Made by a program: the position numbers and the translations under genes | Notes under the pieces: model-generated | Told to the model about the DNA's origin: nothing | The model's input: the letters and a program-made list of their open reading frames with translations, nothing else | Database searches by the model: none | Source of the DNA: Candidatus Dormiibacterota bacterium | GTDB lineage: Bacteria; Chloroflexota; Dormibacteria; DASZGP01 | Direction of reading: 5' to 3' | Assembly: GCA_035938695.1 (NCBI GenBank) | Contig: DASZGP010000051.1 | Span: 1 to 36,576, forward strand | Length of the DNA stretch: 36,576 nucleotides | Shown here: in pieces, positions 1 through 33,176 of the stretch | Layout: the number at the start of each line of letters is the position of its first letter | Position numbering within the stretch: the first letter of the stretch is position 1

Positions 1-117
1 CAGGTCGCGGACCACCCGCGCCGCCGAGGCCCGGGAGACCAGCCGCAAGGGCTCGCCCGGCCCCGAGCCGGCCTGGCGGCTCTCCAGCGCCTCCTTGCGG
101 AAGATCGAGCCCTTCAC
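1..117 (-). CDS. HlyD-family secretion adaptor (membrane-fusion protein). Only the N-terminal 39 codons are present; the gene runs off the left edge.
   Basis: A reverse-strand GTG at 117 lies 1 nt after the lanB stop (TGAcGTG). It reads VKGSIFRKEALESRQAGSGPGEPLRLVSRASAARVVRDL in frame to base 1. The FRKEALE..G..L start resembles the N-termini of bacteriocin/HlyD-type export adaptors. It is absent from the ORF track because it is truncated. Confidence 0.45.
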   Translation of the reverse strand, partial: MKGSIFRKEALESRQAGSGPGEPLRLVSRASAARVVRDL

Positions 118-118
118 G

Positions 119-3100
119 TCAGGTCCGGGCGGCCCGCGAGAGGTAGAGGCGGTCGAGGAAGTCGTAGATCACCAGCTCCTGGGCCCGCGCGGCCGAGCGC
201 AGCAGGCGGTTGAGGTGCATGTGGACCAGGCTGGCGCCGAGGTCGGGCAGGGGGATCATCAGCTGGCCCTTCTCGCGCAGTTCGTGGATCCGGGCCACCG
301 GCCCCGCCAGGGCGGCGTTGCGGGCGTCGAGGATCTGGATGCCGGGGGCGATCTCGCCGCCGTCCCAGCCGGGGTCGATCAGGTTCTGGACTTCGGCGGT
401 CAGGCCGCGGTAGCGGTCGGCGACCTGCTTTCGCAGCCCGCCGTCGTCGCCGAACTCGCGGCGGTAGGAGTCGCGCAGCCGGCGCAGCAGGGTCCGCTTG
501 GCCTCGGCGTCCAGCCCGAGGGCGGTCAGGAGCTGGTCGGAGCCGCGCAGGCCGAGCTTCCAGCGGGCGTCCATGCCGGCGTCGCCGGCGAGCAGCTCGA
601 CGATGCTCAGGACCGCCTCGCTGTCGGCCCAGAAGAGCTGCTCGCAGACGTCCATTGAGGAGGGGCCGTAGCGCTCCAGCTCGCGCTGGTAGGTGTCCAG
701 CATCAGGCGCGAGACGGTGTGGTCGCGGAGCAGCGGCTCGAGCGTGGCCTCGAGGTTGGGCAGGAACTCGCCGAGCAGGCGGCGGGGGTCGCCATGGAGG
801 CGCAGCCGGAGGTGCCAGTCGGGGTCGGCGTAGCGGATGAAGAACCAGCTGTCGGCGGCGCCGGTGGCGATCGCCTGGCGGGTCAGCGGCGCCAGCACGT
901 CGCGCAGCAGGGCGTCGGCGGTCGAGGTGCCGCAGTAGAGCTTGAGGTAGAGCCACTCCGAGCCCGGGGCGTAGGTGCGGCGGACGTCGGTCTGGATCAA
1001 AAGCCGCCGCTCGGCCGGGTTCTCCCAGGCCGACTCGGTCATCGCCGGCTCGGCCGCCGGCGCCGCCACCACCTCGCCGGCGGGGTGCTCCGCCCTGCCG
1101 TTGGCCTCGGCCGGGACCGGCGCGCCCCGGCCCGCCTTGCCGCCCTTGGCCTCGGCGGGCGGGGTCGGGATCGCGGTCAGGGGTATCACCAGCTCGTTGG
1201 TGAAGGTCCCCTCGGGGCCCTCCGCGATCAGCGTCTCGCGGCTGGCGAACGGCTCCACCAGGGTCACCTGGGGCCGCTTCTTGAGCAGCTGCACGAAGGT
1301 CTCCACGCTGAGCGCGTTGTCGAAGTCGACCCACAGCTCGTTGTCGGCGTCGCTGACCGCCACCCAGCGGGGCATCGAGAGCCGGGCGCGCATCTCCTGG
1401 GCGGCACCGAAGCGGGCGTCGGGGGTCGGCAGGTCGAGCTTCTTGATCTCGTCGCGGGGGACGTTCCAGCGGGCCCGGCTGAGCACCGTGTTGCCGCTGA
1501 CCACCCGGGGCAGGAAGGGGGCCCCCTGGAAGGGACCCCAGTCCCAGCCCAGGTCGGAGTTGACCCCCTGCATCTGCAGGGCGCAGAGGAAGCGGTAGAT
1601 GCCGACGCTGCGGAGCCCGTAGTTGTGGGCCGAGCTGAGCCGGGGGACGATCTCCCGGTTGAGCCGCTTCGAGCGCAGCACCACGCGGTCGCCGGCGACC
1701 GCGACCATGATGTCGTCGACGCCGATCTGCATCTCCGCCGGGGCTCCCGAGCGGCCCAGGTAGGCGATCTCGTACTGGCGCAGGACGGGACGCATGACGA
1801 TGTTGCCGATGCGGCCCTCGGGCAGGTGGACGACCTCGGCGAAGATCGCCTCGGGGCTGCCCGCCTCCTCCTCGCGGAGGTGCTCGCCGACCTGGCGCTC
1901 GAGCTCGGGGTCGGCGTGGCAGAAGCGGCCCAGCAGGCGCGCGCCCGAGGGCCCGAAGGCGCCGTGGTAGTACATCCTGGTCTTGCCCTGGCCGGCCTCG
2001 CCGCGGGCCACCTCGACCACGCAGGACAGCGAGCGGGGGAGGGGCACGTTGCCGGGCGCCGGCAGGGCGTCGAGGTCGGCGTTGGTGATGGCGATCTCGT
2101 CGCGGCCCTCACGGTAGGCCTCGCTGAGCTTGCGCAGGGTCAGCGACTGGAGCGCCCGCCAGCGCACCGACTCGTCCATGCTGCCGGGGAAGTTGATCCC
2201 CTGGAGCAGCGGCGAGGCCTCGGCGCCGGGGGCGTTGGAGCGGTCGAAGCCGATCCCCACCTCCTCGTCGAGGACCAGGTTGAGCGGCACCTCGGTCGAC
2301 TCGTAGCGCTCGCGGAAGGCGTCCCGGAAGGCGCTCAGGCCGTCGCGGCCGCCGCCCCCGCCGCGCAGGCGGTAGAGCATCCGGATCACCCGCTCGACCT
2401 CCGACAGCACCTCGGGGCCGACGGTGGCGCGCTCCACGGGCTTGACCAGGTCGAGCTGGAAGAGGCGGTTGAGCTCCACCGGCGCGGGCAGCTCGCCGAG
2501 CGACTCGGCCAGGGCCCGGTACTCCGCCGGCGGGGTCCCCGGCGGCTCCTCCTCGCGGCGCTCCAGCCACTTCTCGGCGGCGTCCATGGTCTTGGCCACC
2601 AGCTCGGCCTCGGGGATCGCGGCCAGGCGGCGGACCAGGATGCCGACCGGCTCCTCGCCGGTGATCTCCGGTTCCAGGTCGCTGACCAGGAGCTGGCTGT
2701 CGATCAGCTCGTCGACGAAGCCGAGAGCCTCCTCGATCGAGATGTCGGGCTCCACCAGGGCCTGGGCCAGCTCCTGGCGGGTGGCGCCGGCGGCGGCGCG
2801 GCCCAGGGTGGCGTTGAGGTAGTCGGAGTCCTCGACCGCCACCAGGCGGTGCTGGCGCTGCTTGTTGCGGAAGCGGGCCTCGACGTAGCGGAGGCGGCCG
2901 GCGGCGCGGTAGATGCTGCTGTTGGGGCGCCAGTGGAGGCGTTCGCGGATCTGGGTGTCGGTCTCCAGGTTGCTGACCAGGCCGGCCACGTACTCCATGT
3001 CCAGTCGCACGTGGCGGCGGTAGGTCGAGCGCGGGCCGAGCTCGAGGGTGGTCTCGTCGCCGGTGGTGCCGACCGAGCAGCCGGCGAAGAGCCCGAAGGG

Positions 3101-3436
3101 CGTCGGGCGGGTGCACATCCGCGAGAAGTAGCGGACCAGGGAGCGCTCGGCCCGGGTGCCGTTCTCGCTCTCCGGGTCGGCCTCCCAGGCGGCCAGGGCG
3201 GAGTCCAGGTCGGGGGAGGCGACGAAGAGCGCCTCGCGGACCTCGGGGCGGGCGATCAGCTCGCGCAGCCGGGCCCGCAGCGTCTGGCGGTCGGCCTTCA
3301 GCGCCGCCGCCCGGTCGCCCTCCGGCGCGGCCGGGGCGGCCAGGCCCTCGCCCCAGTCGAGGAACTCGGAGATCGGCAGCAGCGGCGTCCGCAGGGCGAA
3401 GAAGCCGGCGGGGCGGAGCTTGGCCTCCAGGCTCAT
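119..3436 (-). CDS. lanB: Class I lanthipeptide dehydratase LanB (full length, with glutamylation and elimination domains)
   Basis: 1105-aa ORF. The N-terminus FFALRTPLLPISEFLDW is typical of Lant_dehydr_N (PF04738 type). The C-terminal region EWLYLKLYCG...WFFIRYADPDWHLRLRLHG is typical of the SpaB_C/Lant_dehydr_C elimination domain (PF14028 type). ATG at 3436, TGA at 119-121. Confidence 0.93.
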   Translation of the reverse strand: MSLEAKLRPAGFFALRTPLLPISEFLDWGEGLAAPAAPEGDRAAALKADRQTLRARLRELIARPEVREALFVASPDLDSALAAWEADPESENGTRAERSLVRYFSRMCTRPTPFGLFAGCSVGTTGDETTLELGPRSTYRRHVRLDMEYVAGLVSNLETDTQIRERLHWRPNSSIYRAAGRLRYVEARFRNKQRQHRLVAVEDSDYLNATLGRAAAGATRQELAQALVEPDISIEEALGFVDELIDSQLLVSDLEPEITGEEPVGILVRRLAAIPEAELVAKTMDAAEKWLERREEEPPGTPPAEYRALAESLGELPAPVELNRLFQLDLVKPVERATVGPEVLSEVERVIRMLYRLRGGGGGRDGLSAFRDAFRERYESTEVPLNLVLDEEVGIGFDRSNAPGAEASPLLQGINFPGSMDESVRWRALQSLTLRKLSEAYREGRDEIAITNADLDALPAPGNVPLPRSLSCVVEVARGEAGQGKTRMYYHGAFGPSGARLLGRFCHADPELERQVGEHLREEEAGSPEAIFAEVVHLPEGRIGNIVMRPVLRQYEIAYLGRSGAPAEMQIGVDDIMVAVAGDRVVLRSKRLNREIVPRLSSAHNYGLRSVGIYRFLCALQMQGVNSDLGWDWGPFQGAPFLPRVVSGNTVLSRARWNVPRDEIKKLDLPTPDARFGAAQEMRARLSMPRWVAVSDADNELWVDFDNALSVETFVQLLKKRPQVTLVEPFASRETLIAEGPEGTFTNELVIPLTAIPTPPAEAKGGKAGRGAPVPAEANGRAEHPAGEVVAAPAAEPAMTESAWENPAERRLLIQTDVRRTYAPGSEWLYLKLYCGTSTADALLRDVLAPLTRQAIATGAADSWFFIRYADPDWHLRLRLHGDPRRLLGEFLPNLEATLEPLLRDHTVSRLMLDTYQRELERYGPSSMDVCEQLFWADSEAVLSIVELLAGDAGMDARWKLGLRGSDQLLTALGLDAEAKRTLLRRLRDSYRREFGDDGGLRKQVADRYRGLTAEVQNLIDPGWDGGEIAPGIQILDARNAALAGPVARIHELREKGQLMIPLPDLGASLVHMHLNRLLRSAARAQELVIYDFLDRLYLSRAART

Positions 3437-3440
3437 GACT

Positions 3441-3522
3441 GACGAGCCATCCGCGAGCGGAAGCGGATCATGACCGACGCGCCCATCCGCGAGCGGAAGC
3501 GGATCATGGACGAGCCATCCGC
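3441..3522 (-). repeat. Intercistronic direct repeats with embedded hairpins between lanC and lanB
   Basis: The 26-nt unit ccatccgcgagcggaagcggatcatg occurs at 3447-3472 and 3483-3508 (identical copies, 36-nt period). A third partial copy, gacgagccatccgc, lies at 3509-3522 (compare 3441-3454). Each unit contains the inverted repeat ATCCGC-N8-GCGGAT. On the mRNA strand there are three GCGGAUGG and two AUCCGC elements, which allows alternative pairings. Confidence 0.8.
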
Positions 3523-3535
3523 AGGCCTAGGATGC

Positions 3536-4831
3536 TCATGCCCGCTGCGCCGCCCGCGGCGAGGGCGCCATCAGGAGCAGGTGGTCCCAGCGCGGCTGGT
3601 GGGGCTCGGTCGCGGCCAGGATCACCAGCAGCAGGCCGCAGACGCCGGTCAGCAGCCCGGGGTCGTCCTCGAAGTCGCGCGAGGGGCCCCAGGCCTGGTA
3701 GCCGGCGATGCCGGTGCCGGGCTTGCGCATCTTCAGCATCTGCTCCAGCCAGCGGCCGGCGGCCTCGCGCAGCTCCGCGCGGCCGGTGGCCTGGTAGAGC
3801 CGGTTGTACATGTGGGCCAGGCCGGCGGCGCCGTGGCAGATGCCGGCGTCGATCACCCCGCACTCGTCCATGGGGCGCTGGGAGGCGGCCACCGCCATCT
3901 CCAGGGCCTGGGCGGCGAGGTCGTCGTAGCCGGCGGCGTCGGCGCCGACCCAGAGCCCGATGGCGGCCCCGGGGTCGCCGTAGCACCAGGCGCTGCGGGA
4001 GGCCGCGTACTCGGCCTCGGCGCCGGTGAAGGCCGGCAGGGTGGCGCCGGGCTTGGGGTCGGCGAGGCGGGAGGACAGCATCCAGGCGGCCGCGCCCTCG
4101 AAGAGGCGGCGGGCGCGCTCGACCTCGATGCCCTCGGCGATGGCCTGGCCGAGGAAGCCCAGGGGCCCCGGGATGCCGTGGGCCAGGCCCAGGTTGTAGT
4201 AGCCGCTGGGGTAGCGCTCGGCGGTCTCCTGGAGCATCATCGTGGCCGGCGTGTGCCAGCTGATGCCGACCGCCATCGGCTCGCTCATCTCGTCCATCCG
4301 GCGCACGATCTCGGCGACCAGGTCGCGGGCCACGGGGTTGGGGAGGCGGGAGAGGGCGTAGACCCCGAAGCCGGTCAGCCCGCTGACGATGTCGTAGTCG
4401 CGGCGCCAGGTGTCGCCCTTGAGGTGGGTCAGGAGCAGCTCGTCGATCTCCTGGGTGGCGGACTCCTCGGGCACCTCCAGCAGGCGGCCCTCCATCAGGG
4501 AGAGGGTGGCGGCCACGCCGACGAAGCCGGAGAACAGCGACGGCGGCATGATCTCCGAGCTGATCAGCTCGGCCGCCTTGTCGACCTGGGCCAGGGCGAT
4601 CTCGCCGGCGCCCTCGCGGCCGGCCGTGTGCAGCTCGGCGAAGAGCAGGGCCTGGCCGGCGTGGCCTCCGGCGAAACCGGCGGCGCCGCCGGGGAACTTC
4701 TCCTCGACCACCTTGCCGGCCGCGATCAGCTCGCGCAGGGCGGCTTCGAGGTCGGCGCCGGTGGCGCGGGCGGATTCCAGCAGGCTGCCTTCGGCGATCG
4801 GCTTCCAGTCGGTGACGATGGTCTCGGTCAT
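3536..4831 (-). CDS. lanC: Lanthipeptide cyclase LanC
   Basis: 431-aa ORF with the LanC signature residues: GLAHGIPG, SAWCYGDPG (Zn-ligand Cys) and GICHGAAGLAHMY (Cys-His Zn ligands). This is LANC_like (PF05147 type). ATG at 4831, TGA at 3536-3538. Confidence 0.93.
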   Translation of the reverse strand: MTETIVTDWKPIAEGSLLESARATGADLEAALRELIAAGKVVEEKFPGGAAGFAGGHAGQALLFAELHTAGREGAGEIALAQVDKAAELISSEIMPPSLFSGFVGVAATLSLMEGRLLEVPEESATQEIDELLLTHLKGDTWRRDYDIVSGLTGFGVYALSRLPNPVARDLVAEIVRRMDEMSEPMAVGISWHTPATMMLQETAERYPSGYYNLGLAHGIPGPLGFLGQAIAEGIEVERARRLFEGAAAWMLSSRLADPKPGATLPAFTGAEAEYAASRSAWCYGDPGAAIGLWVGADAAGYDDLAAQALEMAVAASQRPMDECGVIDAGICHGAAGLAHMYNRLYQATGRAELREAAGRWLEQMLKMRKPGTGIAGYQAWGPSRDFEDDPGLLTGVCGLLLVILAATEPHQPRWDHLLLMAPSPRAAQRA

Positions 4832-4880
4832 GTTTGAAAGGCTACCCCCGGACCGCTGCCGACTCTAGGTCGTCAGGGCG

Positions 4881-4917
4881 AAAAAAGGACGGAGCCCGCG
4901 GGCCGCGGACTCCGCCC
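4881..4917 (-). terminator. Intrinsic terminator/attenuator between lanA (A1) and lanC
   Basis: The minus-strand RNA reads GGGCGGAGUCCGCG-GCC-CGCGGGCUCCGUCC followed by UUUUUU. This gives a 14-bp stem whose two non-Watson-Crick positions are G-U wobbles only in the minus-strand transcript; they would be C-A mismatches on the plus strand. It lies 24 nt after the A1 stop. Confidence 0.7.
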
Positions 4918-4940
4918 GGGTGGTTGGATTCAGGCCTGGC

Positions 4941-5198
4941 TCAGCAGGTGCAGGTCTTGTAGCAGGAGGCGTTGGTGATGCCTCCGGGGCACTCGCAGAT
5001 CGAGAGCTGAAGCCACGAGGTGTTGGGCTGGCAGGCGCTCGTGGGGCAGCTCAGGTTGCTGTTGAAGGGCGGCCCGTAGCAGAACTGCTCGCCCTGGGTG
5101 ATCGGCGGAATCCCGCCGGCGGCGCGCAGACCGGCGTCGGTCAGCTCGCGGATGGTCTCCCGGCTCAGCGCCAGGCGGCGCGAATCGAGTCCAGACAT
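4941..5198 (-). CDS. lanA: Lanthipeptide precursor A1: 29-aa leader and 56-aa core with 8 Cys and 12 Ser/Thr
   Basis: Sequence: MSGLDSRRLALSRETIRELTDAGLRAAGG | IPPITQGEQFCYGPPFNSNLSCPTSACQPNTSWLQLSICECPGGITNASCYKTCTC. The SD GGGAGGG lies about 9 nt upstream of the ATG at 5198; an alternative ATG at 5204 would add MG. The gene sits immediately upstream of lanC-lanB on the same strand. Confidence 0.85.
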   Translation of the reverse strand: MSGLDSRRLALSRETIRELTDAGLRAAGGIPPITQGEQFCYGPPFNSNLSCPTSACQPNTSWLQLSICECPGGITNASCYKTCTC

Positions 5199-5263
5199 AC
5201 CCATAGCCCTCCCGGTCAAATGGCGTACACGGCCGGCGTCGCGCCGGCCTTCCTTCCCTGGCG

Positions 5264-5295
5264 ACAATACAACCGGACCGGAGGGCCCACGTCAA
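5264..5295 (-). promoter_or_regulatory. Putative promoter of the lanA1-lanCB operon
   Basis: On the minus strand, TTGACG (5295-5290) and TATTGT (5269-5264, a TAnnnT type) are present, but the spacer is long at about 20 nt. Downstream is a 5' leader with the hairpin GGCCGGCG-CGA-CGCCGGCC (5231-5249). Confidence 0.3.
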
Positions 5296-5334
5296 GCGCC
5301 TGTTACCCGATCGCGCCGGGAAACCGCGGGCGGG

Positions 5335-6190: not shown

Positions 6191-6847
6191 CTACCGATCG
6201 CTCAGCGAGCGGTCGCAGGCGCTGAGGAACTCGTGGCGCAGGTGGGGGTCGGTCTCGTAGTTGCCGCGCCAGAAGGAGGTCCAGGTCTTGGAGTGGTGCT
6301 CCTTGACGCCCCGCATCTGGGTGCAGAGGTGGAGCGCCTCGAGGTGCACCGCGACGCCGTGGGGCTCGAGGATGCCCGCCAGCGCGTCGGCGATCTGCAC
6401 CCCCATCCGCTCCTGGACCGTGAAGCGGCGGGCGAAGATCCGCACCAGCCGGGTCAGCTTGGAGATGCCGATGATCTGCTCATGGGCGATGTAGCCCACG
6501 TGGGCGGTGCCGAAGAAGGGCAGCGAGTGGTGCTCGCAGAGGGCGTAGAAGTGGATCGGCCCCTCGATGATCTGGCTGATGTTGCAGTCCGGCCCTTCGA
6601 GGCACTCGGTGGGGAAGGCGGTCAGCAGCTTGGGGTCGCCCTCGTAGCCGGCGGTCGAGTCGTAGATCGCCTTGAGGAAGCGCTCGGGGGTGCGCTGGGT
6701 GCCGGGGGTGTCCATGTCCATGCCCAGGGCTGCGAAGATTTCGGCGATGTACCCCTCGAAGCGCGCCCAGTCCGCCGGCGGGATGTCACGGGGGCTGGTC
6801 TGCTCCCAGGGGGATGTCTCTTCGGGGTCGATCGCGATGTTGGCCAA
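6191..6847 (-). CDS. folE: GTP cyclohydrolase I (FolE type)
   Basis: Contains TPERFLKAI...FYALCEHHSLPFFGTAHVGYI...IGISKLTRLVRIFARRFTVQERM. The likely start is the TTG at 6847, preceded by cAGGAGGacccc. The longer ORF-track version (to 7198) is Pro/Arg-rich and unlikely to be translated. Confidence 0.88.
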   Translation of the reverse strand: MANIAIDPEETSPWEQTSPRDIPPADWARFEGYIAEIFAALGMDMDTPGTQRTPERFLKAIYDSTAGYEGDPKLLTAFPTECLEGPDCNISQIIEGPIHFYALCEHHSLPFFGTAHVGYIAHEQIIGISKLTRLVRIFARRFTVQERMGVQIADALAGILEPHGVAVHLEALHLCTQMRGVKEHHSKTWTSFWRGNYETDPHLRHEFLSACDRSLSDR

Positions 6848-6916
6848 GGGGTCCTCCTGTTGGCTCCATTGTTGGCCATCCGGCGCCGGCGCCGCATCGG
6901 GCTGAGGACGGACAGG

Positions 6917-8248
6917 GTGGGCGTGGCGGCGGGCCGGGCGGGTGCCGGCCGGTGGCGCGACCGGCCCCTGGCCGTCGGCCTGGCGGTGCTGGTCGCGTAT
7001 TCCGCCTGGATCGGCTTCTACCTCTCCCGGCACCACTCCGCGCTGGCCTTCGTCCACATCGGCCGCCAGTTCGCCCTGGCCGGCGACCCCCCGCCCGCGA
7101 TCCGGGCCGCCGCCGCCGACCGCGACGCCACCGACGTCGGCTACGACGGCCAGTTCGCCTACTACATCGCGGTCGACCTCGGCGGCGCCTGGCGGCATAT
7201 GGACGCGCCCGCCTACCGCTACGCCCGCCTCGGCTACCCGCTGGCGGCGCGGCTGGCGGCCCTGGGCATCGCCGCGCTGGTGCCCTGGACCATGCTGGCG
7301 CTGAACCTGGCGGCGGTGGCGGCGGGGGCGTGGGCCCTGGCGGCGTGGCTCCGCGAGCGCGGCGCGAGCCCCTGGTGGGCGCTGGTCTACGGCTTCTACC
7401 CGGGGCTGTTCATCGCGGTCCAGAACGACCTGACGGAGGTCACCGCGTACTCGCTGGCGGCCGTGGGAGCACTGCTGCTGGCGCGCGCCGGGCCGCCGAC
7501 CGGCGCGGCGGTGGCGGGGGAGAGGCCCGCCGGGTTCAGACGCTTCGTCGGCGCCGGCGCGGTCTTCGGGGTGGCCGGGCTGAGCCGCGAGACCGCGCTG
7601 CTGTTCCCGGCGGTCTACGCCGCCGCGCGGGCCCTCACGGCCTGGCGAGCCCCGGCAGGGTCACGCCGCCGCCCGGCGATGGAGGCGCTGGCGCTGGCCG
7701 CGCTGGGGGTGCTCCCGGCGCTGCTCTGGCGCCAGGTCGCCTATGCCATCTTCGGGTCGGGGGGCGGCCAGGCCGAGGTGGCCCGGGTGCCGTTCGGCGG
7801 GTTGCTCAGCTTCCTGCCCTTCGAGCCCCGGGAGTGGATCGAGGTGCCGGCGGTGGCGCTGCCCGCCCTGCTGCTGCTGGTGATGGCCGTGGTGGCGCTG
7901 TTGCGGAGGGCTCCCGCCGAGGGACCGGGCGGCGGCGCGGTGGCCCTGCGGGGCGGTGAGGGCGTCACGCCCGCGCGGGCCACGGGCGGCACCGGCTCGG
8001 CCGAGCTGGTGCTGGTGATCCTCAACGCGCTGCTGGTCGTCTTCCTGCAGCGCTCGTCGTGGTTCTCCTACTACGACTCGGGCCGGGTCAGCACCGGCCT
8101 GGTGCTGGCGGCGCTGCTCGCGCTCCCGGCGCTGCGGGCCCGCCTGCCCGCCACCCGCATCCTCTGGCCGGTCGTGGTGCTGCTCTGGCTCAGCGCCGTC
8201 CCCCCGGGGCTGCTGGCGCCCCACGCCTTCCACGCCCTCAAGCTCTGA
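6917..8248 (+). CDS. Polytopic integral membrane protein of unknown function (a GT-C-like glycosyltransferase fold is suspected only)
   Basis: Multiple hydrophobic segments and the motif YDGQFAYYIAVDL...AYRYARLGYPL. The likely start is the GTG at 6917, with GAGGA 8 nt upstream. The upstream part of the track ORF (6185-6916) is antisense to folE. Confidence 0.55.
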   Translation: MGVAAGRAGAGRWRDRPLAVGLAVLVAYSAWIGFYLSRHHSALAFVHIGRQFALAGDPPPAIRAAAADRDATDVGYDGQFAYYIAVDLGGAWRHMDAPAYRYARLGYPLAARLAALGIAALVPWTMLALNLAAVAAGAWALAAWLRERGASPWWALVYGFYPGLFIAVQNDLTEVTAYSLAAVGALLLARAGPPTGAAVAGERPAGFRRFVGAGAVFGVAGLSRETALLFPAVYAAARALTAWRAPAGSRRRPAMEALALAALGVLPALLWRQVAYAIFGSGGGQAEVARVPFGGLLSFLPFEPREWIEVPAVALPALLLLVMAVVALLRRAPAEGPGGGAVALRGGEGVTPARATGGTGSAELVLVILNALLVVFLQRSSWFSYYDSGRVSTGLVLAALLALPALRARLPATRILWPVVVLLWLSAVPPGLLAPHAFHALKL

Positions 8249-14789: not shown

Positions 14790-14978
14790 TCAGCACGCGA
14801 CGCAGCCGCTGGTGGGGCACTGGCTGGCCAGGGACAGGGACTGGCAGGAGGGGTCGCTGCAGGCGCAGGACTGGACGCAGGAGGTGGTCACACCGCCCAC
14901 CACCAGGGGCGCGTCGGCGTCGGTCAGGCGCCTGATCGTCTCGGACCGCAAGCTCAGCCGCCGGAGGTTCTCTCGCAT
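14790..14978 (-). CDS. lanA: Lanthipeptide precursor A2: 29-aa leader and 33-aa core with 7 Cys and 11 Ser/Thr
   Basis: Sequence: MRENLRRLSLRSETIRRLTDADAPLVVGG | VTTSCVQSCACSDPSCQSLSLASQCPTSGCVAC. ATG at 14978 preceded by AGGGTGAAA. The stop is 24 nt upstream of the kinase ATG. Confidence 0.8.
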   Translation of the reverse strand: MRENLRRLSLRSETIRRLTDADAPLVVGGVTTSCVQSCACSDPSCQSLSLASQCPTSGCVAC

Positions 14979-24694: not shown

Positions 24695-24740
24695 CTGATT
24701 GTGGCGTGCCGCGCCGGGCCCCGAAGTTACAATCCGGCTC

Positions 24741-26534
24741 ATGACGATGACGCAGAGCCCGCCCACCGGGGCCGAGACGATCCACTGGGACCTGAGCCAG
24801 CTCTACCCCGGGGACGGCCGGGCCGGCGTCGAGGCCGACCTCAGCCGCGGCGAGGAGATGGTCCTCGACTTCGAGAAGGCCTACCGGGGCCGGGTCGCGA
24901 GCCTCGACGCGCCGGCCATGGCCGAGGCGCTGCGGCGGCTGGAGGAGATCCAGGACCTGGTCGAGAAGGCCAGCTCCTACGCCTTCCTGGACTTCAGCAC
25001 CAACGTCGCCGACCCCGCCAAGGGGGCGCTCCTGCAGAAGGTCCAGGAGGCCGCCACCCAGCTCGGCACCCACGTCATCTTCTTCAACCTGGAGTGGATC
25101 GCGGTGCCCGACGAGACCGCCGCCGGGATGCTCGCCGACCCCGCCCTGGACAACTACCGCCACCACCTGGAGAGCGCCCGCCGCTACCGCCCACACGTCC
25201 TCACCGAGCCCGAGGAGAAGGTCCTGACGGAGAAGACGGTGACCGCCCGGAGCGCCTGGGACCGGCTCTTCGAGGAGGCCTGCACCGCCATCCGGGTCAG
25301 GACCGGCGGCGCCGAGCTGACCCTCGACGAGGCGCTGTCGCGGCTCCACAACGGCGACCAGGACGACCGCCGCAAGCTCCAGGGCGAGATCACCGAGGCG
25401 CTCCGCGCCGACCTCCGCACCCGGCGCTTCATCCTCAACACCATCCTCGCCGACAAGATGATCGACGACCGCCTCCGCCGCTACCCCCACTGGCTGGCCG
25501 ACCGCAACCTGGCCAACGAGGCCTCCGACGAGTCGGTCGAGGCGCTGATCGAGGCGGTCACCAACCGCTACGACATCACCCACCGCTACTACGCGCTCAA
25601 GCGGCGGCTGCTGGGCCTCGAGAAGATGTACGACTTCGACCGCTACGCCCCGGTCGGCGGCGACGAGCCCGACGTCTCCTGGGAGGAGGGGCGGGACACC
25701 GTGCTGGACGCCTACGCGTCCTTCTCGCCCAAGCTCCGCGACCTGGCCGCCGAGTTCTTCGACAAGGAATGGATCGACGCCGCGCTCTCGCCCAACAAGC
25801 GCGGCGGAGCCTACGCCCACCCGGTGACCCCGCGCGACCACCCCTACGTCTTCATCAACTGGACCGGCAAGCGCCGCGACGTCCTGGTGCTGGCCCACGA
25901 GCTGGGCCACGGTGTCCACATGTCGCTCAGCCGCAAGCAGACCGGGCTCAACTTCAACACGCCTCTGACCACCGCCGAGACGGCCTCGATCTTCGGCGAG
26001 ACGGTCACCTTCTCCAAGCTCCTGAGCGGGGAGACCGACCCCAAGCGCCGCCTCAGCCTGCTCATCGGGCGGATCGACGACTCCGTCGCCAGCATCTTCC
26101 GGCAGATCGCCATGAACCGCTTCGAGGACGTCATCCACAACCGGCGGCGGGGCGAGGGCGAGCTGTCGGAGGAGACCCTCAACGACGCCTGGCTCCAGAC
26201 CCAGCGGGCGATGCTCGGCCCGGCCGTCGAGGCGACCGAGAACTACGGCATCTGGTGGAGCTACATCCCCCACTTCATCGGCGTGCCGGGCTACGTCTAC
26301 GCCTACGCCTTCGGCAACCTGCTGGCGCTGGCGATCTACAAGCGCGCCGAGGCGGAGGGCCCGAGCTTCGCGCCGCGCTACTTCGACCTGCTGGCCTCGG
26401 GCGGCTCGGAGTCGCCCGAGCAGCTGACGGCGCGGATCGGCGTCGACCTCACCGACCCGGGCTTCTGGGCCGGCGGCCTGGAGCAGATCTCCGACCTGGT
26501 GGACGAGGCGGAGGCGCTCAGCCGGCAGGTCTGA
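24741..26534 (+). CDS. pepF: M3-family oligoendopeptidase F
   Basis: 597 aa with the Zn motif LAHELGHGVH, a downstream ETASIFGE and the typical PepF N-terminus (WDLSQLYPG). ATG at 24741. Confidence 0.9.
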   Translation: MTMTQSPPTGAETIHWDLSQLYPGDGRAGVEADLSRGEEMVLDFEKAYRGRVASLDAPAMAEALRRLEEIQDLVEKASSYAFLDFSTNVADPAKGALLQKVQEAATQLGTHVIFFNLEWIAVPDETAAGMLADPALDNYRHHLESARRYRPHVLTEPEEKVLTEKTVTARSAWDRLFEEACTAIRVRTGGAELTLDEALSRLHNGDQDDRRKLQGEITEALRADLRTRRFILNTILADKMIDDRLRRYPHWLADRNLANEASDESVEALIEAVTNRYDITHRYYALKRRLLGLEKMYDFDRYAPVGGDEPDVSWEEGRDTVLDAYASFSPKLRDLAAEFFDKEWIDAALSPNKRGGAYAHPVTPRDHPYVFINWTGKRRDVLVLAHELGHGVHMSLSRKQTGLNFNTPLTTAETASIFGETVTFSKLLSGETDPKRRLSLLIGRIDDSVASIFRQIAMNRFEDVIHNRRRGEGELSEETLNDAWLQTQRAMLGPAVEATENYGIWWSYIPHFIGVPGYVYAYAFGNLLALAIYKRAEAEGPSFAPRYFDLLASGGSESPEQLTARIGVDLTDPGFWAGGLEQISDLVDEAEALSRQV

Positions 26535-31396: not shown

Positions 31397-32473
31397 TCAG
31401 ATCAGGCGCTGGCGAGGCGACCGTCCGGGGGGTGGGCAGATGGCGCCGCCGGACCTGGCGCAGAGATCACGGTGGAGCACCGCGAGCGGCGGCGCGCCGG
31501 ACGCGCAGGCGCGCTTGCACAGGGTGGTCCCGGGATCGGCGTTCCCGTTGCAGATGCTCGGGCTGACGAACGTGCCCGGGTACTGCAGGCCGGCACCGGT
31601 GACGGTGTTGCGGACCCACGCGGTGTAGTTGGTCACCGCCCAGTAGCAGTCACCCTGGTTGGCGGCGCCGGCTTCGACCTCCAGATAGTTGCCGCTGTTG
31701 TCGGCGCAGAACGACGTGCCGTAGCAGACGGCCGGAGGGTCGGCTGCCGAGCTCCCTCCGGTGTTGTAAACGGTTGTCTGTTCCTGGATCCTGTCCACCA
31801 CGTACGTCTTGGTCGAGTCGTCGCAGCCGACGGACCCGTGGACCTCGACCTCGTCCTGGGCCGACCCTCCGGCGATGGGCTCGTTGTCGCCGCGGAAGAA
31901 CATGGACGAGGTGGCGCCGCAGAAGAACTTGCTGAACAGGTCGCTGCACGTCTGGTCGCACTGGTCCGCGGCCCATTTCGCCGCCACCGCGTAGGCGCCG
32001 CCACAGACCACCGGGTCGAAGCCGGAGACGTCGCAGAAGAGCTGGGCGTCGTCGTGGGCCGTCATCGCGTCCTGGACGCAGCCCGCGACGCACGCCGCCA
32101 GCAGCAGCGGATCGACGGCGGCGACGCTGACGACCGACCGCCGGGCGGCGGTGGCCGTGACCTGCAGGTGGGTCGCGTCGACCATCGTCCCGACGGCCGA
32201 CGAGTGAAGGGTCTGGCCGGTGACGACGTTGGTCCCGGTCAGCTCGGAGGTGTAGCGGTTGGCCTCCCTGCTCCCCGTCGCGGTGATCCGCCAGTCTCCC
32301 CGGCGGACGGTCTCGGAGCCGGGCGCCGGGGCGGCCGGCGCGGACGCTCGGGCGACACCGGACAGCGGTGGTGCCGTGGCGTGGGCCGCGGACAGCGGCG
32401 CCAGGGCGCCGGCCATGACGACCAGCGCGGCGGACATCCGCGCGATCTCGGTTCTGCCGATACGGAATTTCAT
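31397..32473 (-). CDS. Secreted cysteine-rich protein of unknown function (16 Cys)
   Basis: The signal peptide reads MKFRIGRTEIARMSAALVVMAGALAPLSAAHA. AGGAGA lies 6 nt upstream of the ATG at 32473. All 16 Cys are in the C-terminal roughly 230 residues. No family was recognised. Confidence 0.65.
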   Translation of the reverse strand: MKFRIGRTEIARMSAALVVMAGALAPLSAAHATAPPLSGVARASAPAAPAPGSETVRRGDWRITATGSREANRYTSELTGTNVVTGQTLHSSAVGTMVDATHLQVTATAARRSVVSVAAVDPLLLAACVAGCVQDAMTAHDDAQLFCDVSGFDPVVCGGAYAVAAKWAADQCDQTCSDLFSKFFCGATSSMFFRGDNEPIAGGSAQDEVEVHGSVGCDDSTKTYVVDRIQEQTTVYNTGGSSAADPPAVCYGTSFCADNSGNYLEVEAGAANQGDCYWAVTNYTAWVRNTVTGAGLQYPGTFVSPSICNGNADPGTTLCKRACASGAPPLAVLHRDLCARSGGAICPPPGRSPRQRLI

Positions 32474-32531
32474 TCGAACTCTCCTAGGTGGCCGGCCGTC
32501 GGGCCGGCGTTGAACATCGGCGGGCATGCCG

Positions 32532-33176
32532 TCACTGGACGGGACATATGCCGCCGTAGCAGTTGGGCACGCCGATCACCGGGTCCTGGGCGACCGCGGC
32601 CGTGCCGTGGAAATCCCCCACCAGGGTTGGTACCTGGCCGCAGGCGTCGATGCTTCCCCCGCCGCTGTACTGCTCCCCCACCCGGACGCCTCCCACCTGG
32701 TCGGTGAGGCCGGTCGGATCGGCGATCGACGTACCGCCGGAGAAGTAATAGCTGGCCATCCACCCGCCGCCGTAGGCGTGCACCACGACGTTGGCGCCGA
32801 CGTAGGTCGCGCCCGTCTGGATCGTCAGGATCCCCTGCCCGCTCCCGGAGACCGTGAGGTCGTTGCAGGTGCCCCCGGGGGGCAGGCTCCAAGTCCCCGT
32901 GATCTGCGCGTCGAGCGTGACCGGGCAGAGGGCCAGCCGGCAGTTGTCGACCTGTCCCTGGGCGTGCAGGTCGCACTCCCAGACGCCTTTCACGTAGGTG
33001 ACGCAGGAGCTGGGCGTGGACCCGCTCCAGGTGACCGTCACGTGGTCGCCGATCTCGATCCCATGGGCGTGAGCCCCCACTCCCTGCATCGCCACGCTGC
33101 TAAGGGCGCATATCACGCCCGCCAGCAACGGCCGCCACCGGCGTCGGCGCCGGCCGAGCCTGATCAACCAAGCCAC
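32532..33176 (-). CDS. Secreted protein of unknown function (8 Cys in the mature part, Gly-rich)
   Basis: GTG start at 33176 with GGAGG 9 nt upstream. The Arg-rich n-region (RLGRRRRRWRP) is followed by a hydrophobic segment ending AHA. No family was recognised. Confidence 0.6.
   Translation of the reverse strand: MAWLIRLGRRRRRWRPLLAGVICALSSVAMQGVGAHAHGIEIGDHVTVTWSGSTPSSCVTYVKGVWECDLHAQGQVDNCRLALCPVTLDAQITGTWSLPPGGTCNDLTVSGSGQGILTIQTGATYVGANVVVHAYGGGWMASYYFSGGTSIADPTGLTDQVGGVRVGEQYSGGGSIDACGQVPTLVGDFHGTAAVAQDPVIGVPNCYGGICPVQ

Follow-up and report, generated by a model that had tools for sequence, protein, structure and literature searches.

We describe here the opening 36.6 kb of contig C51 (DASZGP010000051.1, positions 1 to 36,576 of the forward strand; hereafter the window) from the genome of an uncultured soil member of the Dormibacteria (Candidatus Dormiibacterota, GCA_035938695.1), and propose that its left end holds, on the minus strand, an operon lanA1-lanC-lanB-lanT of a class I lanthipeptide system with double-glycine (GG) leaders. 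Moreover, the same LanB and LanC most likely also mature 64-67 precursors encoded elsewhere in the genome. Judged from sequence, we put the probability of this reading at roughly 80%. The genome bin comprises 2.3 Mb in 325 contigs, with a completeness of 76.7%, a contamination of 0.42% and a GC content of 73%.

The assignment to class I is carried by the two modification enzymes. The lanB gene (119-3436, minus strand, as are all parts of the operon) encodes a full-length class I dehydratase of 1105 amino acids with glutamylation and elimination domains (PF04738, PF14028, TIGR03891); PF04738 (Lant_dehydr_N) is covered over the whole model with an E value of 1.5e-160 and PF14028 (Lant_dehydr_C) is matched with an E value of 5e-68. 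The product is also similar to LanB proteins of known structure (9G04, 5EHK and 4WD9), and the GC content at third codon positions (GC3) of lanB is 0.98. The lanC gene (3536-4831) encodes a zinc-dependent lanthionine cyclase of 431 amino acids (PF05147, LANC_like, E value 1.3e-36), in which alignment to NisC (2G02) shows that DYD, GLAHG, R-x-x-WCYG and CHG are retained; we take these to be the NisC motifs that contain the catalytic (acid-base) and zinc residues. A sequence-only reading of this DNA had described a compact class I lanthipeptide operon with a two-domain LanB of full length, a LanC complete in its zinc and acid-base residues and a machinery that looked functional. The family searches and the NisC alignment agree with it on each of these points and support an apparently functional class I lanthipeptide system. 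One LanB and one LanC-like domain, that of lanC itself, were found in the genome. The closest relative is a 12.2-kb Joint Genome Institute (JGI) contig, L091, with the order lanA-lanC-lanB-lanT, whose LanB is 76% identical, and LanC is 75% identical to the ortholog on the overlapping Logan contig L090. At 40-52% identity, the same LanB subfamily occurs in Acidobacteriota, Myxococcota, Planctomycetota, Actinomycetota, Chloroflexota and Bacillota.

The precursor gene lanA1 (4941-5198) adjoins lanC and lanB at the positions given in the earlier reading, and its start at 5198 aligns with the start codon of the ortholog. It encodes 85 amino acids, namely a 29-residue leader ending in GG (MSGLDSRRLALSRETIRELTDAGLRAAGG, 5198-5112) and a 56-residue core (5111-4944) with 8 Cys and 12 Ser/Thr. 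The leader box, LALSRETIREL...AAGG, fits the pattern L-x-L-x-(K/R)-x5-L with Arg in place of Lys. When compared with the NCBIfam leader model NF038153 (lant_leader_L1a), six of ten family precursors scored 11.5-19.2 bits, all below the cut-off of 22 bits, and the leader is, on these scores, a diverged relative of that model and not a member of it. The C-terminal core module, LSICECPxGITNASCYKTCTC, is nearly identical in A1 and in the ortholog precursor P0004 (70 amino acids), and A1 differs from the latter by a 15-residue insertion that adds two Cys. The A1 core is unusually long because of this insertion into a conserved peptide family. The earlier remark on its length and eight Cys holds against nisin-type cores, but an eight-Cys core behind a GG leader had already been predicted in Cystobacter fuscus (PMC3951391). 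If all rings form, few class I products would be more heavily cross-linked than the one from this 56-residue, 8-Cys core.

At the other end of the operon, a GTG 1 nt past the lanB stop, as had been pointed out before, opens an open reading frame (ORF) of 39 codons (1-117) which runs off base 1 of the contig and begins with the tag IFRKEALE...GPGEPLR. A second JGI contig (L009), with an identical LanB, adds 12 nt, giving 43 residues, and then breaks. This 43-residue fragment is 65% identical, gapless, to the N-terminus of P0006, an 833-residue LanT with PF03412, PF00664 and PF00005 encoded directly after lanB in L091; past the 43-residue region, P0006 continues into ...RPPRVPYVPQMEISDCGAAC, the start of its C39 domain. 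In two further Dormibacteria genomes (G008 and G029; LanB 54-59% identical), a protein of 751 or 754 residues with Peptidase_C39, ABC_membrane and ABC_tran domains is encoded right after lanB, and its N-terminus, LFRPEALEAQAHSVGPGEPLRAVSR, has the same motif as that of the window, IFRKEALESRQAGSGPGEPLRLVSR. The tag FRxEALE...GPGEPLR thus stands ahead of C39 in three Dormibacteria LanTs (L008:4921-7176, L007:1608-3872 and P0006), and it is present in 7 of 120 close LanT homologs.

The remainder of the exporter appears to be on another contig of the same genome. P0006 is 79% identical to an ORF cut short at the right end of contig C150, in the orientation required for a join with the left end of the window; the C150 fragment has PF00664 and PF00005 and is also reached by the LanTs of G008 and G029 in a tblastn search of the genome (58% identity, residues 193-751). 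Moreover, there is synteny between L091 and C150 in the genes 3' of lanT. From this similarity and gene order we infer that the 39-codon ORF is the start of lanT, a C39-peptidase ATP-binding cassette (ABC) exporter gene cut by the contig end, and not an hlyD gene; that about 150 codons (some 0.45 kb, the C39 domain) would fall in the assembly gap; and that the membrane and ATPase domains would lie on C150. The apparent lack of LanT, which the sequence-only reading had noted, would thus be an artefact of the contig end, and the puzzling layout with neither LanT nor LanP would have an ordinary explanation.

Beyond the operon, a regular expression followed by a hidden Markov model (HMM) built from the leaders recovered 66-67 small ORFs on 34 contigs with the leader xxLxLxRETVRELxxxxLxxAAGG, 53 of 66 ending in GG, and a separate search of the genome returned 64 leader-family precursors. 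Their cores have a median of 35 residues, 4 Cys and 8 Ser+Thr (overall 10.8% Cys and 21% Ser+Thr), and they are highly diverse, with 3 of 2080 pairs more than 50% identical. Five of these precursors lie unlinked to the operon within the window itself, all on the minus strand: A2 (14790-14978), which has a 33-residue core with 7 Cys, and the tandem pairs A4 (20364-20182) and A3 (20171-19938), and A6 (27007-26813) and A5 (26805-26587). Examples elsewhere in the genome are found at C286:1168-4927, C46:677-1416 and 6787-7331, C180:413-1593, C164:3038-3912 and C283:1528-2202. Mis-binning was considered as the source of so many precursors and set aside, as the GC fraction is 0.725 in the precursor contigs and 0.727 in the rest of the genome; neither are precursors enriched near contig ends (39 of 66, with 59% expected).

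The distribution of the leader family largely follows that of LanB. Among 61 Dormibacteria genomes, leader-family precursors were found in the present genome (64), G029 (five), G008 (three) and G007 (one), and LanB was found in the first three of these and not in G007. The lanC and lanB genes of G029 are flanked by four leader-family precursors. In a wider set of 80 retrieved loci of the same LanB subfamily, from many phyla, the leader-box expression matches small ORFs in 27, and five genomes of other phyla with this subfamily gave 0-4 leader matches each. Many of the scattered precursors also share with lanA1 a layout of the 5' untranslated region (UTR), in which an unpaired (A/C)RGGGAAGGR element comes first, usually followed by a GC-rich hairpin, with the Shine-Dalgarno sequence last; this layout is kept in L090 and has no Rfam match. 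GGAAGG occurs at -22 to -90 in 24 of 66 precursors and in 3.6% of 867 background genes, and the GGGAAGG-hairpin 5' UTR may mark a regulon. In view of leader-guided recognition, one LanB/LanC pair could modify all of the precursors that share the leader, and we give a little better than even odds to the stronger proposal that a single LanB/LanC/LanT set is a natural many-substrate factory for at least 64-67 precursors, equivalent within class I to the prochlorosin system.

Other explanations of the region have to be weighed against this one. The earlier reading regarded the ORF after lanB as HlyD-like, and a system with an HlyD-type membrane-fusion protein, and without LanT and leader protease, would follow from it. 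It is true that the IFRKEALE...EPLR start also opens genuine HlyD proteins encoded after lanB in diderm loci (Holophaga, Myxococcota and Acidobacteriota); the one in Holophaga locus L059, for instance, has 423 residues, starts with IFRQEALEH...EPLRVSPPWTW and leads from there into a transmembrane helix, and two genes for peptidase-containing ABC transporters (PCATs) come next. Past EPLR, however, these true HlyDs have SPxW and the helix, whereas the window has the charged stretch VSRASAARVVRDLFERI, as in the Dormibacteria LanTs, with residues that are not hydrophobic and form no transmembrane helix; the fragment itself has no Pfam or NCBIfam match. Since G008, G029 and L091, the closest relative included, carry the tag fused to C39-ABC, the HlyD identity was rejected; C150 ends in a LanT without N-terminus and shows synteny with L091, and the sole HlyD_3 match in the genome is on contig C81, all of which leaves this explanation very improbable. 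The likeness to HlyD/CvaA-type membrane fusion proteins of bacteriocin exporters is in the N-terminal FRxEALE...EPLR motif, of which LanT has about 25 tag residues, and the relatives continue from there into C39 and not into a transmembrane helix and a coiled-coil/barrel body. In our reading, an HlyD adaptor seems to have lost its body and left its cytoplasmic tag on the Dormibacteria LanT. It is hardly credible that the operon is decaying or silent: a relic would fit the lack of immunity or regulatory genes nearby and the tandem repeat and terminator inserted between its genes, but all frames are intact with the high GC3 noted above, the catalytic motifs are retained, and the orthologous operon is 75-76% identical in protein with the C-terminal core module nearly unchanged.

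A more serious alternative, which we nevertheless consider unlikely, is that LanB and LanC mature A1 only, and that the other 65 or so precursors are exported by PCATs as unmodified or disulfide-bonded, bacteriocin-like peptides or are matured by enzymes encoded in the unassembled 23% of the genome. In its favor are the incompleteness of the genome, the presence of other transporters next to some precursor arrays (a DrrAB-type ABC-2 pair on C286 and an MsbA-like exporter on C46), the long, Ala/Thr-rich and Cys-poor cores of four C180 precursors, and the zinc motif of LanC, which is CHG and not the CCG of the promiscuous ProcM. Against it, the conserved box is situated in the part of the leader associated with LanB and accompanies the LanB subfamily across phyla in the 27 loci counted above, four such precursors stand beside lanC and lanB in G029, and, in the Dormibacteria searched, the leader family is nearly confined to genomes with LanB. 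The composition of the cores, rich in Cys with Ser+Thr in excess of Cys, also speaks against it. No LanM and no LanC domain other than that of lanC was found in the genome, and as the search for the LanM dehydratase family (DUF4135) matched no control genome either, the LanM negative counts for little.

Several observations weigh against the operon and its unlinked substrates as proposed here. The assembled genome has no match to PF03412, because, as we see it, the C39 domain falls in the assembly gap. The ends of C150 and C51 do not overlap and no read or contig bridges them, and neither a degenerate DNA pattern for the tag nor a LanB-based scan gave a hit in metagenome contigs. The A1 leader does not match NF038153 at all. 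The surroundings of the operon hold no immunity genes, and in a genome about 77% complete a second synthetase or a LanP may be encoded in the unassembled part. As for attenuation within the operon, the terminator-like hairpin behind lanA1 has no counterpart in the ortholog L090, and a TAGAGT box read in the sequence 3' of the hairpin and before lanC could equally be an internal promoter.

With the operon lanA1-lanC-lanB-lanT as the preferred reading, maturation would proceed as expected from the enzyme families. The lanA1 gene would be transcribed from its own promoter, and the hairpin behind it would probably allow read-through into lanC-lanB-lanT in a fraction of the transcripts. LanB would bind the leader, glutamylate Ser and Thr of the core from Glu-tRNA and eliminate glutamate to leave dehydro-residues, to which LanC would add the Cys thiols, forming up to eight thioether rings in A1. 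LanT would then cleave after GG and export the peptide, so that no LanP is needed.

The noncoding parts of the operon are partly conserved. A putative promoter (5267-5295; TTGACG, 17 nt, TTGTAT(TG)), proposed earlier at about 5264-5295, has boxes TTGAC(G/T)-17 nt-TTGTATTG that are kept in L090 while the intervening spacer has diverged; a strict consensus scan, on the other hand, finds no promoter in this region. Next come the 5'-UTR element GGGAAGGAAGG and its GC hairpin (5231-5258), common to many of the scattered precursors, and the Shine-Dalgarno sequence GGGAGGG of lanA1 (5207-5213, read from the sequence), both kept in L090. The ortholog on L090/L091 also retains the RibD_C neighbor and a GGGAAGGA element.

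Between lanA1 and lanC, a consensus scan places an intrinsic-terminator-like hairpin (4917-4881) with a 14-bp stem, 11 GC pairs and T6 after it. The spacer of 99 nt between lanC and lanB (3437-3535) is made of 2.6 copies of a 36-nt tandem repeat (Tandem Repeats Finder, 3433-3522; two exact copies of 23 nt), which is absent from the ortholog. Neither region folds better than shuffled sequence (z = -1.72 for the terminator, z = -1.13 for the spacer), and Rfam gave no known RNA family in the lanA1 leader, the terminator or the spacer (gathering threshold or E<=1). Since the gaps in the ortholog are only 1 nt between lanA and lanC and 15 nt between lanC and lanB, the terminator and the repeat-built spacer appear to be recent, non-essential additions in the present lineage. 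An attenuator and a structured spacer had been proposed at these sites; the hairpin is indeed there and the spacer does have 99 nt, but the former is not a conserved part of the system and the latter is neither structured beyond chance nor conserved. Attenuation at the lanA1 hairpin is plausible as a conjecture.

No LanP, LanFEG or LanI had been noticed in the window, and Pfam scans agree. The absence of LanP, which had seemed puzzling, is accounted for by the leader ending in GG and the predicted C39 exporter; genome-wide there are eight S8 matches, none adjoining the operon. An immunity role was considered for the conserved ABC genes 3' of lanT in C150 and L091 and was not retained, as these genes, read from their sequences with no family search made, look like a Liv-type importer. 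Other transporters stand beside precursor arrays away from the operon. A DrrA/DrrB-type ABC-2 efflux pair (C286:1534-3409; drrA 358 bits, above the cut-off) lies inside an array of eight precursors and could serve for LanFE-like self-protection or export, and an MsbA/HlyB-like ABC exporter without C39 (C46:4698-6689) is encoded directly 3' of two precursor genes. The C180 array consists of four tandem paralogous precursors whose 60-66-residue Ala/Thr-rich cores have only 3 Cys (TSGDVC...GGC...C), and the quartet forms a distinct subfamily, perhaps not of ordinary lanthipeptides.

The remaining large ORFs of the window match housekeeping functions in Pfam scans, such as RibD_C, GTP cyclohydrolase I, an AMP-binding enzyme, a 5'-3' exonuclease and 1-deoxy-D-xylulose-5-phosphate (DXP) synthase, and include two major facilitator superfamily (MFS) transporters, an M3 peptidase, an ion channel and a luciferase-like oxidoreductase. 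They contain neither an S8 protease nor an ABC-2 pair, and none is a complete C39-ABC gene. The M3-family gene, for an oligoendopeptidase F (24699-26534, plus strand), is convergent with the A6-A5 precursor pair, which may be a coincidence. Two neighboring ORFs of 376 and 214 residues (31397-33176, minus strand), earlier described as secreted Cys-rich proteins, have no Pfam match.

Leaders that end in GG are established in class I systems. A class I type in which LxLxKx5L leaders end in GG and the cluster encodes a C39 protease has been described (Walker et al., 2020; PMC7268733), and experiments on the viridisins (VdsA1/A2-VdsCB; PMC9680876) have shown modification by LanBC under the direction of a GG leader. 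Clusters of LanBC with a C39-type LanT and GG leaders have been predicted in Mycobacterium tusciae, Corallococcus coralloides and C. fuscus (Singh and Sareen, 2014; PMC3951391). The operon described here is, by its genes and leader, a predicted GG-leader class I lanthipeptide operon of a known type, diverged and in a new phylum-level lineage, and with it the Dormibacteria, an uncultured phylum-level lineage, would join the producers of such peptides. In the literature searched, we found no description of a natural many-substrate class I system or of a Dormibacteria lanthipeptide. If the many-substrate proposal is true, peptide engineering would gain a class I enzyme pair that is promiscuous by nature, and combinatorial lanthipeptide biosynthesis would be known from a second, independent case.

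With the GG-leader class I systems (viridisins, thalassomonasins, Ped15.1/15.2 and pinensins), the Dormibacteria operon has in common a separate LanB and LanC, the L-x-L-x-(K/R)-x5-L box, the GG end, a C39 ABC exporter (here predicted) instead of LanP and several precursors per leader. It differs from them in being found in Dormibacteria and not in Bacteroidota or Proteobacteria, in the Arg that replaces the Lys of the box, in a leader below the NF038153 cut-off, in a LanT with an extra HlyD-like N-terminal tag and in about 66 precursors in place of 2-4; its LanB is of full length, whereas that of the pinensins is split. The predicted three-enzyme architecture without LanP is shared with the M. 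tusciae, C. coralloides and C. fuscus clusters, which in contrast have a single precursor each and are known as predictions. Nisin-type operons (nisABTCIPRKFEG) have the LanB/LanC chemistry and a terminator after the structural gene in common with it, but here there is no FNLD box, Pro at -2, LanP, LanFEG/LanI or LanRK, and the predicted exporter has a protease domain. In organization, the system resembles the class II prochlorosins and synechococcins, in which one synthetase set (ProcM or SyncM) serves tens of dispersed precursors with GG-ended leaders, hypervariable cores and no linked immunity. Those systems of marine cyanobacteria rely on one LanM, whose zinc site is Cys3, and on Nif11-type leaders, whereas the Dormibacteria system would do the same with a separate LanB and LanC, an ordinary CHG zinc motif and an unrelated leader.

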